Shown here: positions 267 through 12,656 of the stretch, piece after piece
Position numbering within the stretch: the stretch's first letter is position 1
Layout of the letters: the number at the start of each line of letters is the position of its first letter
Virus record (IMG/VR): IMGVR_UViG_2778261447_000008
Span: 1-13,187 of that record
Strand: one strand, 5' to 3'
Source: a virus
Taxonomy: Duplodnaviria; Heunggongvirae; Uroviricota; Caudoviricetes
DNA length: 13,187 nt
Translations under genes and position numbers: made by a program
Notes under the pieces: model-generated
Told to the model about the DNA's origin: nothing
What the model saw: the letters and a program-made list of their open reading frames with translations, nothing else
Databases searched by the model: none

Positions 267-893
267 ATGACATGCCAGCACAATACTGTCACTTACAACC
301 GTTCGGATTACCTAGAGAAAAGTATGATTCAGGATTTACTGATCGAAGCAATTAGTCACGATAGGATGCATAAAAAGTTAAATGAACTGAATTGCTACTT
401 CTACAATCGCAAACATGAAACTCAAATACGTGATGAGTTAGTTGTTATTCTCAATCAAATCAGCACACTAACTGCTTTAAGTGAGCATCCAAAACTCGGT
501 ATCGGCGCTGTTGACATATCACTTTATAACCAGTCGATATTAACGTCTGAACATAATGGCAATGTTGCAACCATCGAGATCAAACACCATTACCCAAAGG
601 ATTTACTTTATCGGCAAGTTCAAGAAGACATCATTTCCGATATTTCAAGAGTAATAGTTTCACCAACTACACATTTTATCCATATAATCCAGCAAAGAAC
701 TAGGATTAATACTCCTTCTTTTGGCCAAGTGAAATTCCTTGAACGTGATGCAAGTGATATCAGCACTTATGTGCAATGCCTTGAAGAGCTAAGTTCCTTC
801 CCCAGTATCTTTCATAAAAAAAGTATATGTATTGAGGTACTTGGTGAAATTATGTCGACATATACCTTTAACGTATATTCATTTGACAACTGA
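267..893 (+). CDS. hypothetical protein; AT-rich cargo (moron) gene convergent with the lysis cassette
   Basis: 208-codon ORF in the track. Codon usage is AT-rich, unlike the flanking phage genes. No family recognised. No Shine-Dalgarno before 267; the Met20 ATG at 324 is preceded by a purine-rich stretch (gagaaaag) and may be the true start. Confidence 0.45.
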   Translation: MTCQHNTVTYNRSDYLEKSMIQDLLIEAISHDRMHKKLNELNCYFYNRKHETQIRDELVVILNQISTLTALSEHPKLGIGAVDISLYNQSILTSEHNGNVATIEIKHHYPKDLLYRQVQEDIISDISRVIVSPTTHFIHIIQQRTRINTPSFGQVKFLERDASDISTYVQCLEELSSFPSIFHKKSICIEVLGEIMSTYTFNVYSFDN

Positions 894-1912: not shown

Positions 1913-2239
1913 TTACTCCTTAGAGCCACCAAATTTGTTACCGATTACTCGCATTGCAGCCCCACGAATAGCATCGACACCGATCAGCCCCACTCCACCA
2001 CCAATGGCAACAGATAGTGATTTAGGCCATCCGACATACTCAAGAGCGGATGCAAAAGTCAGCGTCAGAGCGCCACAGAGTAGAATTTCGAGTGTTTTTC
2101 GCTTCCAGCCACCACCACCGCCAAAATAGGCAATACGTAAACCAGCCATAACAATCGACATAATCACTGCGCCCAGCGGTGTGTCTCCACGCCACCAGCT
2201 CTGGACCAACTCCAACCAGGTATTTGGGTTATGAGGCAT
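1913..2239 (-). CDS. holin (three predicted transmembrane segments)
   Basis: 108 aa with three hydrophobic segments and a charged C-terminus. Stop lies 3 nt upstream of the endolysin start. First gene after a late-leader terminator. Confidence 0.7.
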   Translation of the reverse strand: MPHNPNTWLELVQSWWRGDTPLGAVIMSIVMAGLRIAYFGGGGGWKRKTLEILLCGALTLTFASALEYVGWPKSLSVAIGGGVGLIGVDAIRGAAMRVIGNKFGGSKE

Positions 2240-2377: not shown

Positions 2378-2413
2378 ACCCAGAAACGACAAAACCCGCT
2401 CGATGGCGGGTTT
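2378..2413 (-). terminator. intrinsic terminator in the late leader (tR'-like), minus-strand sense
   Basis: Perfect 8-bp stem aaacccgc / gcgggttt (2392-2399 and 2406-2413) with a 6-nt loop. On the minus strand it is followed by ttttgtcgttt; the plus-strand side has only three T. Confidence 0.5.
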
Positions 2414-2420
2414 AAGCTGT

Positions 2421-2530
2421 GTGGCGAAGTGAGCACACTTAACAGATTACGATATTTTTTGCGTACGCGTTAGTGTTTTGATAGAATTTTCAGCCGCATA
2501 AAAATTCATTCTTATAATTCGGGATATATA
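2421..2530. promoter_or_regulatory. intergenic control region: candidate late promoter/qut on the minus strand and candidate cassette promoter on the plus strand
   Basis: Non-coding gap between the terminator hairpin and the cassette start. A perfect TATAAT lies at 2513-2518 (plus), 12 nt before the ATG at 2531, with no good -35. The minus-strand pR'-like hexamers could not be pinned down by eye. Confidence 0.3.
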
Positions 2531-3706
2531 ATGGATATAACTTGTTTAGAATGTGGCAATGTTCTTGACGACCCAACTGTAGCTTGCGATAAATGCGGTG
2601 CCACGCCTCATGTTGTAGTGCTGGGCAAACAATCGTACTTTCCTATTGGTGCTGTAACAGCAAATCTTGAAAAAAATGATTCAAGAGCATTTGATTATCG
2701 ATTAGGTGAAGTTTGGGATCTAAAAAATGAAGTCACATCTGAATTCATAACCAGAATTGAGAAAAAATTTAGCCGAAAAAACAAATTTCATAACTTCCTA
2801 GACTCAGATCACAACCCTTCATCCATTCCTACGATCCTAAAAAAATACATTAATAAAAATAATGAATTCATTGATTTATCTAGAGCTATAATAGAGAAGC
2901 TTAAACATAATGCTAATAACGAATCGAGAGTTGCCCAACTTCAGGGGGGGAGCGTTGTTTTCATCCACTATAAGTCTACCGAACCAGAGGATTTGGGGAA
3001 ACTTCTAATCGTAATGGTTGATAAACAAAGCGCCTATGACTTTGATTCGGATAAGTTGACCCCAACAAGATTAAATCCAATTAATACCGATGCCTTACGG
3101 CAGGCTGCGATGTTCGATTTAACTTTATTCGAAGCCAGTTATCCAGAAAACAAGGGTGACTCATATGTACATTTCTTGCAAGGTAAATCTAAAAGCGATT
3201 TTTTCAAAGACTCATTAGGTTGCCGACATGATTCGGACAATAAAAGAAGCATTCAGCAATTATTCAGTGCTATAGATATTTTTGCTAGTAAAAACTCACT
3301 CGGTCGTGTACTGCGTGATACTATTGACAATGAAGTTAAATCCTTACTGGAAAAAAAATCAAAAGATAAATACGGAAATAAGTCCGTTAAGATAGAGGAT
3401 ATTTCAAAAATAATTGACTCATGCCTGACTGATTCACACAAATGTAAGGGAACGTTTGTCGATTTTGTTAATCTTAATGGTTTCCAGATTGACCCTCAAT
3501 TTGAACCAACTCCTAAAGCAGCTGAAAGCGCGCTTACAATTGAAGTGGCAGATAACGACAATAATTTTAAGTTGAAAATAATGCGTGGAGCTATTGGAGA
3601 CGAAAAGTCAAATAAGCCTGTAATTCTCACTGACAACAAATGCGAAATTGTGATAAAATTGAGTCAGGCAAATTATGATGAACTCAAAAGATATAGAGAC
3701 AGCTAA
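2531..3706 (+). CDS. zinc-ribbon protein with NdpA/YejK (NA37)-like nucleoid-associated-protein region; first gene of AT-rich cargo cassette
   Basis: 391 aa. N-terminal Cys4 motif (CLECGN...CDKCG). The central region carries motifs I recognise from E. coli YejK/NdpA (GGSVVFIHY vs GGFVLFCHY; YVHFLQGKSKSDFFKDSLG vs [22 protein letters not shown]), recalled from memory. Very AT-rich. Confidence 0.6.
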   Translation: MDITCLECGNVLDDPTVACDKCGATPHVVVLGKQSYFPIGAVTANLEKNDSRAFDYRLGEVWDLKNEVTSEFITRIEKKFSRKNKFHNFLDSDHNPSSIPTILKKYINKNNEFIDLSRAIIEKLKHNANNESRVAQLQGGSVVFIHYKSTEPEDLGKLLIVMVDKQSAYDFDSDKLTPTRLNPINTDALRQAAMFDLTLFEASYPENKGDSYVHFLQGKSKSDFFKDSLGCRHDSDNKRSIQQLFSAIDIFASKNSLGRVLRDTIDNEVKSLLEKKSKDKYGNKSVKIEDISKIIDSCLTDSHKCKGTFVDFVNLNGFQIDPQFEPTPKAAESALTIEVADNDNNFKLKIMRGAIGDEKSNKPVILTDNKCEIVIKLSQANYDELKRYRDS

Positions 3707-3708
3707 TA

Positions 3709-4269
3709 ATGACAATTGCTGATGACTTATCAAGATTAGCGCAGATTATTAACGGAGCCTCAAGCAGAGTTGAGGGCTACTACACTGTCATAAGTCTTGA
3801 AGAAAGCATTGTTATTGTAAATAGTTCTGAAATAATTAGACTGTTACAATCTATAGGTTATAAAAAGGCAACAACCTGCATCGAAAATAATGAAATTTGG
3901 CTAGATCGCCAAGCTTCATCTTGGGATGACGCTATAATTTATGAGAATGTTGAGTCTTTTTGGTCTAGAGTAAACACCCAAAACGCTCTTCCGAAAAATT
4001 ATATCATCGGAACGCCGTTAATACTCCCTACTTCTAAGAATGAAAGCATCGAAAAAATCCATATTTTCTTTATGTGGAAAGATATCCTTTCATTAATTGC
4101 TGATCATCATAACAGTGACTGCTCTGTCTTATTTTTCACCAATGAAGACAAAAGTTATACAGTCGAACTCACGCATTTTTTACAATATAGCGAGATTAAT
4201 CGCTTATCGAACTCGTCTCTTAAATATGAAATTATAAAGGAGCTTCTCGACACAATAAAAAATCAATGA
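3709..4269 (+). CDS. hypothetical protein; second gene of cargo cassette
   Basis: 186 aa. The ATG overlaps the tandem stop codons of the upstream gene (taaTAATG), indicating translational coupling. AT-rich; no recognisable family. Confidence 0.55.
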   Translation: MTIADDLSRLAQIINGASSRVEGYYTVISLEESIVIVNSSEIIRLLQSIGYKKATTCIENNEIWLDRQASSWDDAIIYENVESFWSRVNTQNALPKNYIIGTPLILPTSKNESIEKIHIFFMWKDILSLIADHHNSDCSVLFFTNEDKSYTVELTHFLQYSEINRLSNSSLKYEIIKELLDTIKNQ

Positions 4270-4354
4270 TTTACACAAAAGCGAGCGCAAACTCGTTATA
4301 CGCTCAGCCATAAACGAAGTATTTAAAGCAAATGGTACGTTCAATTTCTTTGAC

Positions 4355-4924
4355 TTGCTTAACTCTACTGAACTCGTCAGGAAAAAATATGATGAACTAT
4401 ATGAGATTTACACAAAGAGGTTTTCTGTAAATAAAATTCTTAACGAACTCGATGAGAAAAATCTTGAGTTCACGAGTAAAATTAACGAATTCATATCATC
4501 TAATCAGACAAAAGCATTGACTATTCCCGGTGCATTAATAGCAGCTGGTGGCTTAGTGAAGGCTAATGAAACAACCGAAGCAATATTGATTATCGCAGGA
4601 CTTTGGATGATAAAAAAAGTCAATTACATTTCTATTGAGATATTCAATGAAACATTCGACAACTTACGTTCTCGAGTGGAGTCCGCTTTCGATAAGTATT
4701 TAAAGTTTGAAGAAAATAAAGAAATCAAAGATAATGCAGATAGTATTAAGAGTAGCATTACAGGTTTGATTGATAAAGCTAAAAAAAGGATGAGAACTGT
4801 TAAATATCTCGCATCAGCCATGTTTTATGGAGGCCTTATTTACGTTGGATATAAACAGTTCCCAGTCTTTTTTGAAAAATCGGCAGTAAATCTATTTTAT
4901 TTTTTATGCCATACTATAAGCTAA
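4355..4924 (+). CDS. small predicted membrane protein (two hydrophobic helices); third gene of cargo cassette; start codon uncertain
   Basis: 189-codon frame with hydrophobic segments ALTIPGALIAAGGLV...ILIIAGLWMI and YLASAMFYGGLIYVGY. The track start is TTG with no Shine-Dalgarno and there is no in-frame ATG before residue 84. A strong AGGA-N6-ATG at 4379-4391 is in another frame. The 3' end overlaps the Q 3' end by 21 bp. Confidence 0.45.
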   Translation: MLNSTELVRKKYDELYEIYTKRFSVNKILNELDEKNLEFTSKINEFISSNQTKALTIPGALIAAGGLVKANETTEAILIIAGLWMIKKVNYISIEIFNETFDNLRSRVESAFDKYLKFEENKEIKDNADSIKSSITGLIDKAKKRMRTVKYLASAMFYGGLIYVGYKQFPVFFEKSAVNLFYFLCHTIS

Positions 4925-5275
4925 CATTGCTAAACAGCCGTCAACAAACCCCATTGCAGTTTGCAGTTCCTTCCTAATTGTGCCATCAGAGCATTTTCTC
5001 TTCTTCGCAATAGTGCGTAATGAGATACCGATAACAAAGTGGGCGATGATGAGCTCATATTCCTCTGGTTTATACCTTCTCAACCGAGCCACACAACTGT
5101 CTATCATGATGCCTTCGTCATCATCACACTGAATCCGTGACTTTTTGCCATGAGGTAAAAGTCCCTTGAAACCAGCCGCTATCGGCTGCCAGTCCACTCC
5201 GCTATTGTCTGAAGCAGCCCAAGCTCCCCAACGATCCATTACTTCATACATATCACGCATCAACTTTCTCCACAA
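4904..5275 (-). CDS. Q: late-gene antiterminator Q (QuuD / phage-82-type)
   Basis: 123 aa with the motifs RWGAWAA, IAAGFKGL, KSRIQCDDD, C.ARL and CSDG.I.K.LQ that I recall from E. coli QuuD-type Q proteins. Last gene of the minus-strand early operon, upstream of the lysis genes. Confidence 0.8.
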   Translation of the reverse strand: MWRKLMRDMYEVMDRWGAWAASDNSGVDWQPIAAGFKGLLPHGKKSRIQCDDDEGIMIDSCVARLRRYKPEEYELIIAHFVIGISLRTIAKKRKCSDGTIRKELQTAMGFVDGCLAMLAYSMA

Positions 5276-8466: not shown

Positions 8467-8960
8467 TAAGCCCCCACGTAATTCCCTGACAGATACCACT
8501 CTTCACCCGATGCCGCGCGCTTGCTGCTTTTCCGTAAGCACCGCTCACGACGCTCCAGAAAATTGTTTCGTTCTGGCTGGGAGTGGCTTTCACGGAATGC
8601 CGCCATCCACACCGTTGCAGCACGACGGTATAAGCCCCTGGACTCCAGTTCTTCCGCCTGGCGGGTCAGGCACAAAATCACCCGCGGGTCGTTAGTGCCG
8701 ACATAGAAATTGCGCACAGGTCTGGTTTCACGAACTGGTTGTGGTTCCGGATCCTGCGCTCTCTCAGTCAGGCGCGGGAAATGTCTGCGTGTATCTCCTT
8801 CACAACGGTGAGCCACACGCCCACTCTGACGTAACTTGCTTGCTGACTGCAGAACGTTCTGCCGTGAGTAACCTGCAAAAGCATCCGCAATGTCTCCGGA
8901 AGTACACCCCGGATGGGCTTCAATGAATTTCTGAACTTCATTCAAAAGACTCATAATCAC
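8466..8960 (-). CDS. hypothetical regulator with PerC-like motif
   Basis: 164 aa. The segment AEELESRGLYRRAATVWMAAF resembles the conserved PerC/Pch activator core (LE..GLWRRAA..W) as I recall it. Start overlaps the stop of the O-like gene. Confidence 0.45.
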   Translation of the reverse strand: MIMSLLNEVQKFIEAHPGCTSGDIADAFAGYSRQNVLQSASKLRQSGRVAHRCEGDTRRHFPRLTERAQDPEPQPVRETRPVRNFYVGTNDPRVILCLTRQAEELESRGLYRRAATVWMAAFRESHSQPERNNFLERRERCLRKSSKRAASGEEWYLSGNYVGA

Positions 8961-9898
8961 CCCCTGAATCCTGCAGGGATCTGGCTGTAGTCCACGTTGT
9001 CGTAACTGGCTTTGAAGTACGGGTCTTCGCGTTTTTCTGTGTACGTGCTGACGGACGGCGATAAGCGCAGGGAAAGCTCATCCCATTTTTCCCGCAACTT
9101 CGACGGGCTGAGCACGTTACGGCACCAGAACGGATCGCGGCTGACGCGGCTGTACATCTCGCAGATTTGTTTGTGAGTACGACCATCCTGCACACACATC
9201 AGGCGAATTTCGTTTGCCCAGGCTGTCCAGTTAGGTTCTTTGGGACGAACCACCTCGCCGTCACATTCGGCGGCCTGCTCGTACAGGGCGATGATTTTTT
9301 TCCAGAGCCACTGTGCGCAGGTCAAATCATCCTGCGTTCCCCACTGGCGATTTTTAGGGCTGAATACAACCGCATCAGGATAGCGAGTTAAAAAATCCTG
9401 TTCAGCCTTCTGCGTGTCCGGTTGCGAAGCGTCCGGACAAGAAGGTTTTTTATCTGACGGATCATGTTTTGATTTTACTGACGGATCCCCGCCAGATTCT
9501 GACGGGTGAAAACCCGCTTTTTTGCCAGATTTCGACGCATCAAATTTTGACGGGTCAGATTTTGATGCGTCAGATTTTGACGGGTCAGAATCTGACAGTT
9601 GAGAAAATGCCGCTGCCTGAAGCTTCGCAACGTTAAGCTGATAAACATTCGACGCATTGCGGTTACCCTGGCGACGCGCCTTACGCGTTAACCAGCCTTC
9701 TGCTTCCAGCCGTGCGATAGCCGTTCTGACGGTACTCATCCCCGCGCCAATCTGGCGGGCAATGGTTTCAATTGATGGCCAGCACACACCTTCGTCATTA
9801 CTGAAATCAGCCAGGCGGGCCATAATTGCCACGCTGGATAACTTCATGCCTGACGCAGCGCAACCATCCCATACATAGCCGGTTAATTTAGTGCTCAT
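8957..9898 (-). CDS. replication initiation protein (O-like) with N-terminal helix-turn-helix and an iteron-encoded linker
   Basis: 313 aa. The N-terminus (SIETIARQIGAGMSTVRTAIARLEAEGWLTRK) is a winged-helix typical of phage replication initiators. A low-complexity SDPSKSDASKSD linker is encoded by tandem DNA iterons, as in lambda O. Confidence 0.7.
   Translation of the reverse strand: MSTKLTGYVWDGCAASGMKLSSVAIMARLADFSNDEGVCWPSIETIARQIGAGMSTVRTAIARLEAEGWLTRKARRQGNRNASNVYQLNVAKLQAAAFSQLSDSDPSKSDASKSDPSKFDASKSGKKAGFHPSESGGDPSVKSKHDPSDKKPSCPDASQPDTQKAEQDFLTRYPDAVVFSPKNRQWGTQDDLTCAQWLWKKIIALYEQAAECDGEVVRPKEPNWTAWANEIRLMCVQDGRTHKQICEMYSRVSRDPFWCRNVLSPSKLREKWDELSLRLSPSVSTYTEKREDPYFKASYDNVDYSQIPAGFRG
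9493..9600. repeat. replication-origin iterons (tandem ~15-bp repeats, consensus CAGATTTTGACGGGT) inside the O-like gene
   Basis: Seven head-to-tail copies read directly: cagattctgacgggt, cagatttcgacgcat, caaattttgacgggt, cagattttgatgcgt, cagattttgacgggt, cagaatctgacagtt, plus tgacgga-type degenerate copies at 9448-9484. Confidence 0.65.
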
Positions 9899-12043: not shown

Positions 12044-12250
12044 ATGCACAAAACAGAACCAAAAATCGTCGCGCCCGGATACACAAATGAGGAAATTTAC
12101 GAGTGGATGGCAAAGAAGCTGGCAGCTATAAACCAGCTTCGTGAAGTGCTGTCTTATCGACAGGTAACAATAGACTCCTTAAAAAAACTGGATCAGGAAA
12201 TCACGGTTTTATCACAGGATGTTACTTTAGATATTGTGCAGACAAATTAG
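12044..12250 (+). CDS. small hypothetical protein, first ORF downstream of the pL-like promoter
   Basis: 68 aa from the ATG at 12044, with a strong Shine-Dalgarno GAGGAGG (12031-12037) 6 nt upstream. Not arginine-rich, so not an N-like antiterminator. The track ORF starts 15 nt earlier at a TTG. Confidence 0.55.
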   Translation: MHKTEPKIVAPGYTNEEIYEWMAKKLAAINQLREVLSYRQVTIDSLKKLDQEITVLSQDVTLDIVQTN

Positions 12251-12656
12251 GATCCCATTCATTTTCGTCAAAATCATCAAAGTGATGAATTTGTGATCTC
12301 CAGTCTCGATAATCTAAAAATTTCTGGGCGGTTACGCTTATTTTATCAAGCGTGAGTTCATCCTGAATTGAAAGAAGAAGTTCATCAAATTTCATCTCAT
12401 TAATCTGTTTTGGCATCCAGTGATGCTTCATCAGAATAAGGTGAACCAGAGCTTTTTTCCCATTCAACTGATTATAGGGAGTACCGAATTTCTTCCGGTG
12501 CTCATGTAAGACAAGGTCCAGAAGAGTAAGTAATGTTGCCCTTGATTCAACTTTGCTTATTTCGACTGATGACACTACCCCACTGATTTCAATGCCCCGA
12601 TACTTTCCAACATTTTCACAGTGGGATTTGTACAGCGTATAGATATTACCGGACAT
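12222..12656 (-). CDS. hypothetical protein; AT-rich cargo gene in the immunity region
   Basis: 144-codon ORF with an ATG start, AT-rich. Convergent with the pL-proximal gene, with 29 bp of 3' overlap. No family recognised. Confidence 0.5.
   Translation of the reverse strand: MSGNIYTLYKSHCENVGKYRGIEISGVVSSVEISKVESRATLLTLLDLVLHEHRKKFGTPYNQLNGKKALVHLILMKHHWMPKQINEMKFDELLLSIQDELTLDKISVTAQKFLDYRDWRSQIHHFDDFDENEWDPNLSAQYLK

Follow-up and report, generated by a model that had tools for sequence, protein, structure and literature searches.

The subject of this analysis is a plus-strand cassette at positions 2531-4924 of a 13,187-nucleotide (nt) stretch of phage DNA (Caudoviricetes; IMG/VR record IMGVR_UViG_2778261447_000008), the whole of which we call the window. 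The cassette stands between the gene for antiterminator Q and the lysis genes, and on sequence evidence it is almost certainly the anti-phage system DS-1, with the first gene, DS-1A, intact and the second, DS-1B, interrupted by a frameshift. A preliminary description, made from the letters alone, had seen in the same open reading frames (ORFs) three genes that matched no named anti-phage system. The features on which the argument rests are as follows.

1913-2239, minus strand: lambda-family holin (PF05106), first gene of the lysis cassette.
2413-2392, minus strand: terminator-like hairpin followed by a T-run, in backbone DNA upstream of the holin; candidate late-leader terminator.
2490-4937, no strand assigned: AT-rich, exchangeable module of cargo, with Q on one side and the late-leader/holin region on the other, delimited by backbone similarity; GC 0.348.
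2531-3706, plus strand: ORF 1, 391 amino acids (aa); DS-1A, a YejK/NA37-like nucleoid-associated anti-phage protein, intact (NF053868, NA37, phrog_3767).
2543-2596, plus strand: N-terminal four-cysteine CxxC-N10-CxxC zinc-ribbon-like motif of DS-1A (C5, C8, C19, C22).
3704-3711, plus strand: junction TAATAATG, read directly from the sequence as the DS-1A stop, 2 nt and the DS-1B start.
3709-4924, plus strand: DS-1B, 404 aa when intact (WP_000150292.1), disrupted by a +1 frameshift (split NF053869 match, CP029747 alignment).
3709-4269, plus strand: ORF 2, 186 aa; N-terminal fragment of DS-1B with the acidic alpha/beta domain, comprising residues 1-184 and then N, Q, stop (residue comparison).
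4257-4262, plus strand: frameshift site, an A6 homopolymer where other copies have A5 (alignment).
4355-4924, plus strand: ORF 3, 189 aa; C-terminal remnant corresponding to DS-1B residues 216-404, with juxtamembrane helix, hydrophobic hairpin and long helices, and no independent gene.
4514-4624, plus strand: predicted transmembrane hairpin of DS-1B, residues ~269-305, ALTIPGALIAAGGLV ... EAILIIAGLWMIKKV (hydropathy peaks at 269-291).
4904-5260/5275, minus strand: antiterminator Q (PF06530, E 3e-47; also a called gene and an annotation).

The cassette runs against its surroundings, as the preliminary description had recognized: ORF calls place it on the plus strand, whereas Q (PF06530), the hairpin and the holin are all on the minus strand, and the holin is followed by a GH24 lysozyme and Rz/Rz1. 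The genes for DS-1B and Q are convergent, the 3' end of Q overlapping the DS-1B stop by 21 nt. The cassette had also been called far more AT-rich than the phage backbone, with codons dominated by AAA, AAT, GAT and ATT, and both statements held when windowed GC and codon usage were computed. GC is 0.348 in the cassette, while the Q-to-replication side has 0.528 and the lysis genes have 0.487; GC at third codon positions (GC3) is 0.31 versus 0.54, and the four codons make up larger shares in the cassette than in the backbone (AAA, 7.0% versus 3.4%; ATT, 5.1% versus 1.9%; AAT, 4.9% versus 1.4%; GAT, 4.4% versus 3.5%), with GAA likewise enriched at 5.1%. The junction between the first two ORFs, noted earlier as a sign of translational coupling, reads TAATAATG, and DS-1A and DS-1B are likely to be translationally coupled across it.

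Comparison of backbones supports the earlier suggestion that the Q-to-S interval is a cargo hotspot. Similarity to two prophages that carry other cargo (loci L025 and L026) ends at 2488/2489 and resumes at 4932/4938, so that the exchanged module takes in the last ~10 codons of Q. Whichever cargo is present, the holin-side backbone keeps its terminator-like hairpin (1497-2489 in L025, 2239-2488 in L026), and the DS-1 cargo therefore appears to be located between Q and the late-leader region. We found no direct or inverted repeats flanking the cassette and thus no sign of transposition. A minus-strand consensus scan of 2414-2530 returned no late promoter pR', and manual reading of this stretch gave poor hexamers only; on the other side, the overlap leaves no room for pR' from the Q stop at 4904 to the DS-1B stop at 4924. 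Nor did DS-1A have a clear sigma-70 promoter: the best candidate, TTGATA-16-AAAAAT at 2478-2505, has 9/12 matches, no improvement on shuffled sequences.

Identity and gene content

Gene 1 matches NF053868 (DS1_1_antiphage, "nucleoid-associated anti-phage protein") with 451.2 bits, the cut-off being 330, over positions 3-369 of a profile of 369, and its product is identical to WP_000355468.1 at 390 of 391 residues, the sole change being H281Y. WP_000355468.1 and WP_000150292.1 together make up transcription unit D390, which DeWeirdt et al. named DS-1 (DefensePredictor, Science 2026, PMC13092281). In their Tables S6 and S8, D390 is entered as defensive (TRUE) and replicated (TRUE) with a YejK/NA37 domain annotated, and the main text lists the YejK nucleoid-associated domain among those newly validated for defence (PMC13092281). 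Table S7 has seven rows for D390 in all, T4 not being listed, with -log10 efficiencies of plating of 7.6 for Bas1 (no plaques), 2.7 for Bas26, 1.7 for Bas3, 1.7 for T3, 1.0 for T5, 0.9 for T7 and -0.15 for SECphi27; the study provides a phenotype for DS-1 and no mechanism (PMC13092281).

The window copy shares with the tested system the same two proteins, their order and the 2-nt junction, and DS-1 occupies the same prophage backbone and slot in other E. coli; it differs in the +1 frameshift after DS-1B residue 184 and in H281Y of DS-1A. Because its DNA is 99.8% identical to intact copies, we regard the locus as a disrupted DS-1 rather than as a different system, which overturns the statement that the genes match no named anti-phage system. 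The intact pair is labelled "nucleoid-associated anti-phage protein" and "anti-phage protein" by RefSeq in strain TUM1226, where it lies in the prophage backbone seen in the window (DUF968, KilA-N, RusA, LexA-family, Dam, PerC). Of 5,426 complete E. coli genomes, 106 have the cassette at an identity of at least 99% (107 records), and its PHROGs families are 3767 (DS-1A) and 5023. A megablast search of positions 2400-5000 against INPHARED phage records returned nothing; the known copies are those in prophages of bacterial genomes.

PADLOC-DB v2.0 (2023) has no model for either DS-1 protein, which fits the later description of the system, and DS-1A and the N-terminal fragment found no match in it. 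The C-terminal remnant matched a CBASS "1TM effector" (PADLOC, E 5.5e-4), and this assignment, like that to LeoBC, was rejected as not reproduced: the CBASS match vanishes with full-length DS-1B and with 33 homologues. Likewise, 30 DS-1A homologues gave scattered single PADLOC matches only (E > 1e-3).

Several observations show that the locus is a two-gene operon whose second gene, for a DS-1B of 404 aa, has been cut into the ORFs of 186 aa and 189 aa. The 337 positions of NF053869 (DS1_2_antiphage) are divided between them, 1-143 on the former with 98.8 bits and 175-337 on the latter with 230.5 bits, and neither score reaches the 315-bit cut-off because the A6 frameshift splits the protein. 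In the alignment with E. coli CP029747, whose reference gene encodes one 404-aa protein, a single extra A distinguishes the window (A6 versus A5), and the window agrees with WP_000150292.1 at every residue of DS-1B positions 1-184 and 216-404. The TTG at 4355 is no more than the earliest start-like codon in the frame of the remnant; the alignment shows no Shine-Dalgarno sequence ahead of it. We also recovered 17 loci from other species, among them Pseudescherichia, several Pseudomonas, Oceanimonas, Proteus, Marinospirillum, Aliidiomarina, Thalassotalea, Vibrio and Vogesella; in 15 of these loci, the A gene has directly behind it, in the same orientation, a B gene whose one ORF covers the whole DS-1B profile. 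Finally, when the 189-aa remnant was used as a query against 1.84 billion cluster representatives, it found 145 relatives, and in nearly all of these the matched stretch corresponds to residues ~215-400 of proteins of 370-490 aa. Split profile, alignment, other-species loci and representatives thus led us to reject the two ORFs as separate genes. Of the three genes previously described, the ORFs stand at the coordinates given for them and the count does not; similarly, what co-occurs in other genomes is the A/B pair and not a trio.

The two proteins and the PANGU comparison

DS-1A has a Pfam NA37 domain (E 1.4e-23), and its AlphaFold2 model (mean predicted local distance difference test, pLDDT, 85) has E. 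coli YejK (NdpA; PDB 9BE2) as its top Foldseek match (E 3.5e-14, 19% identity), in line with the sequence-profile comparison (5e-20). The two proteins thus have the same fold and belong to the same Pfam family. They differ in that identity is only ~19% and in that DS-1A has four extra N-terminal cysteines, is encoded by a prophage and stands in an operon with a membrane protein. With 80.7 bits against the YejK equivalog NF001557 (cut-off 341), DS-1A falls far below the equivalog level, and its sequence therefore marks it as a diverged YejK paralogue; this score and the 19% identity to 9BE2 also led us to discard DS-1A as a housekeeping YejK/NdpA orthologue. The gene had been described as zinc-ribbon/NA37-like. 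The NA37 part is firmly borne out and the CxxC...CxxC motif is there, with Pfam zinc-ribbon models giving sub-threshold matches only (E 0.07) and the region itself modelled at low pLDDT (53-65). The motif is conserved in Enterobacterales homologues and in one other sequence (P0092) and absent from those of Pseudomonas, Oceanimonas and Vogesella, in which the operon is still present; judged by this distribution, it is accessory and not the core sensor.

DS-1B is modelled by AlphaFold2 with a pLDDT of 85 and a predicted template modelling score (pTM) of 0.62. In the model, an alpha/beta N-domain (~1-165) leads into helices that reach residue 268; after these come a hydrophobic hairpin (~269-305) and two helices of great length. 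The predicted layout is an acidic cytoplasmic N-domain, a helical stalk and a C-terminal membrane region, the last annotated as residues 269-404 in Table S8 of DeWeirdt et al. (PMC13092281). The N-domain has a net charge of -9 and an isoelectric point (pI) of 4.9 and is net-negative in 31/33 aligned family members, and conservation across the family peaks at the juxtamembrane stretch KYDELYEIYTKRFSVNKILNELDEKNLEFTSKINEFISSNQTKALTIPGALIAAGG, in the hairpin region. A search of solved structures gave no significant match to DS-1B; alpha-pore-forming toxins (ClyA/AhlB/SmhB) and CorA-type channels were considered as its fold and set aside, as neither has significant structural similarity to it.

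The sole mechanistic work that we found in the literature on YejK-like defence is that of Li et al. (bioRxiv 10.64898/2026.04.06.716658), who describe PANGU systems as bicistronic operons for a YejK-like nucleoid-associated protein (NAP) and an effector. In type I, the NAP covers the chromosome irrespective of sequence and requires DNA of >200 bp; degradation of the genome by T4 nucleases releases it from the nucleoid, whereupon it binds an acidic DNA-mimicking domain and activates a toxSAS toxin, and with a DNA-binding-deficient NAP the pair is toxic even without phage (10.64898/2026.04.06.716658). In type II, the NAP is Pag2A and its partner is Pag2B, a protein with an acidic DNA-mimicking domain (DMK) at the N-terminus and a transmembrane domain at the C-terminus; in the tested example, PANGU-Ecu from uropathogenic E. 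coli, both genes are required (10.64898/2026.04.06.716658). Pag2A binds the acidic domain of Pag2B with a KD of 19 nM and relocalizes from the nucleoid upon T4 infection, and the growth curves fit abortive infection, while Pag2B activation, in the words of the authors, "remains to be determined" (10.64898/2026.04.06.716658).

DS-1 resembles type II PANGU in being bicistronic, with the YejK-like NAP gene first and a partner with an acidic N-domain and C-terminal transmembrane region second, a likeness of layout and not of compared sequences. The type II definition places the partner within <40 bp; in DS-1, the gap is 2 nt and the genes adjoin in 15/17 other-species loci. With regard to DNA mimicry, the N-domain of DS-1B has a charge of -9 and a pI of 4.9 and the transmembrane region begins at residue 269, charge alone being no proof of mimicry. 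Moreover, both systems restrict lytic coliphages, and the tested type II example is from E. coli. Type I (Pag1A with the GRel toxSAS Pag1B) shares with DS-1 the YejK-like NAP sensor and the same proposed release logic; it differs in its effector, a cytoplasmic (p)ppGpp-synthesizing toxin where DS-1 has a membrane protein, and a Pfam-level scan of the window proteins found no toxSAS domain. As the layout of DS-1 is that of type II PANGU in every feature testable, the type II model is the best explanation at hand, and we incline, with some caution, to the view that DS-1 works by a type II PANGU-like mechanism.

In our model, DS-1A would be held on chromosomal DNA in the healthy cell and freed when an infecting phage degrades or displaces the host nucleoid. 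Freed DS-1A would then bind the acidic, DNA-like N-domain of DS-1B at the membrane and thereby switch on the membrane module, most plausibly by oligomerization, with the membrane losing its integrity or potential, and infected cells would no longer support phage growth, a case of abortive infection. The model is consistent with the fact that T5, the T5-like Bas26, T3 and T7, which are among the restricted phages, degrade host DNA. T4 also degrades host DNA. Its absence from the DS-1 table, which has Bas1, Bas26, Bas3, T3, T5 and T7, while PANGU-Ecu was assayed on T4, does not fit release from the nucleoid and weighs against our model.

The absence of T4 would be easier to reconcile with a system that senses the incoming phage directly, by its DNA or a protein and perhaps through the zinc ribbon, and blocks injection or early steps, giving direct immunity or superinfection exclusion with no death of the cell. 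A prophage-borne system with a membrane partner recalls the classical exclusion systems, the zinc-ribbon-like motif is an addition absent from YejK, and restriction of Bas1 is complete. But the motif is missing from many homologues with the same operon, the phages Bas26, T5, T3 and T7 destroy host DNA as just noted, and the only YejK-like defence systems studied so far act by nucleoid release and abortive infection; direct sensing is therefore, in our judgement, quite unlikely. We consider it very unlikely that DS-1 is distinct from type II PANGU, responding to a trigger that is not of the T4 type (with complete restriction of the Drexlerviridae-like Bas1 and T4 unlisted), and that the split allele parts a soluble sensor-binding domain from a still-functional membrane module; if so, the allele would offer a ready-made dissection of effector gating. 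Returning to the PANGU-like model, the earlier proposal of a DNA-sensing component plus a membrane effector finds its counterparts in the YejK-like DS-1A and the membrane protein DS-1B, and of the two modes then offered, abortive infection and superinfection exclusion, the closest studied systems point to the former.

The extra A in DS-1B

The A6 tract cuts DS-1B between the putative DS-1A-binding half and the membrane-effector half, which would probably leave the copy without function, and we think that it is quite probably inactive, most likely as a recently inactivated pseudogene. None of the 107 complete-genome records with the cassette has the A6 allele, all of them carrying A5 at this site, and a metagenome scaffold with the same DS-1A allele (Y281) encodes an intact 404-aa DS-1B, which suggests that the frameshift is recent.

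These same two observations, together with the nature of the change, a one-base length difference in a homopolymer in a gene with no other damage, could also be expected if the extra A were an error of sequencing or assembly and the strain had an intact, functional two-gene DS-1. Speaking against this, the separately built Logan assembly of run SRR3974397 has the same A6 with 100% identity over 2601 nt, making an artefact of one assembler unlikely. The window is contig NOCS01000094.1 of GCA_002549495.1 in full, and this contig and the Logan assembly were possibly built from the same reads. Besides, a run of six A is short for a systematic short-read error, and DS-1 has decayed independently elsewhere. 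In E. coli AF5 (NZ_OZ547033.1; locus L001, 6132-8081), an IS1 element lies inside DS-1A, and homologues are split, fragmented or truncated in Stutzerimonas (L014, 9055-10388), Photorhabdus (L020, 7992-8836) and Halioglobus (L023, 7992-9529), so that decay of DS-1 seems to be recurrent. On balance, an error is unlikely.

The split allele might alternatively be a working three-part variant in which the acidic N-domain acts as a soluble DS-1A-binding regulator while a membrane module is made from TTG 4355. The break is suitably placed for this, in a predicted loop between helices 169-184 and 190-208 near the boundary of the N-domain and the helical-membrane part, and the membrane module makes up most of a few short proteins (~206-221 aa) in the library. 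We find this highly improbable, since TTG 4355 has no Shine-Dalgarno sequence and no ATG precedes the second hydrophobic helix, 31 residues (185-215) of conserved helix would go missing, the allele is unique against the 107 matching records, and family members are nearly all single proteins of ~400 aa; under the PANGU model, moreover, an untethered N-domain would merely soak up the sensor. Altogether, the analysis favours as the probable explanation of the locus a copy of DS-1 with a PANGU-like nucleoid-release mechanism that has been inactivated by the A6 frameshift.

The Q-holin slot and the rest of the window

Exchange at the Q-holin slot extends to other prophages and other cargo. In some E. 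coli, the DS-1 cassette lies in a DLP12-type prophage exactly at the position of nmpC in K-12, and nmpC in DLP12 has in common with DS-1 both the Q-S slot and the orientation antisense to Q and the lysis genes. The stx phages use the same hotspot, the difference being that the cargo in the window is a defence operon. Moreover, stx lies inside the late transcript, whereas the DS-1 cassette appears to sit between Q and the late-leader region. In the same slot and also on the plus strand, E. coli JS316 (L025, 2218-3945) has a TIGR04255-family protein with two hypothetical proteins, and E. coli JNE120442 (L026, 319-3471) has a metallophosphoesterase of 1050 aa with a match to PADLOC PDC-S60 (1e-97) and a remote relationship to DS-8 that stays below threshold. 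With DS-1, the PDC-S60/DS-8-like metallophosphoesterase and the TIGR04255 trio as cargo, the slot behaves as a defence-gene swap site.

Neighbours of DS-1 homologues in ten other genomes include integrases, transposases, Septu (PtuA/PtuB), type II methyltransferases, PDC-S31/S73 and an nSTAND3 NTPase; the Pseudescherichia homologue has the same lambdoid genes near it. Septu and the PDC candidates place homologues near known and candidate defence genes, as the preliminary description had proposed to check. These neighbourhoods bear on whether the cassette is primarily defensive at all, or instead a lysogenic-conversion module in which a prophage nucleoid protein reshapes host or prophage transcription. 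DS-1A does come from a family of chromosome-binding proteins, and AT-rich morons at this site include the non-defence nmpC in DLP12. Yet the intact allele gives up to 10^7-fold protection in the published plaque assay, pairing with the membrane protein is obligate across classes, and the surroundings are those of defence islands and mobile elements, which makes a non-defensive role extremely improbable. A DS-1 pair was also seen in a 2.6-kb contig (L008, JAATEZ010000277.1) of a metagenome-assembled genome named "Lactobacillales bacterium", with a DS-1A 49% identical to that of E. coli; this is likely to be a binning error and not a Gram-positive occurrence, because all other DS-1 matches are from Proteobacteria.

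Elsewhere in the window, a second AT-rich moron (324-893, plus strand, GC 0.356) lies just past Rz/Rz1. It contains a 189-aa ORF of phrog_12494 (function unknown) that has no match in Pfam, NCBIfam or PADLOC. The closest complete E. coli genomes lack this moron, their matches beginning at 938-955, whereas contigs L005 and L006 have it. At 12222-12656 on the minus strand, a 144-aa ORF lies in an AT-rich patch (GC 0.36-0.40) that adjoins the immunity region; its matches are NF033230 (ECs1072 family phage-associated protein) and phrog_5286. Finally, positions 9526-9600 have repeats with a 15-nt period, CAGATTTTGACGGGT-like, with copies starting at 9526, 9541, 9556 and 9571, inside the gene for an HTH_36 replication protein (8957-9898, minus strand); they look like the iterons of a lambda-type origin inside an O-like gene.

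As a discovery, the locus adds little, since DS-1 has already been predicted, cloned and shown to be protective in E. coli, with curated NCBI models, and the PANGU preprint already gives a mechanistic framework for YejK-like defence systems. What it does provide is a correction, namely that there are two genes here, the second of them broken, so that the locus is not to be counted as an intact or a three-gene system, and it draws attention to the Q-holin slot of this backbone as a good place in which to seek further defence systems.

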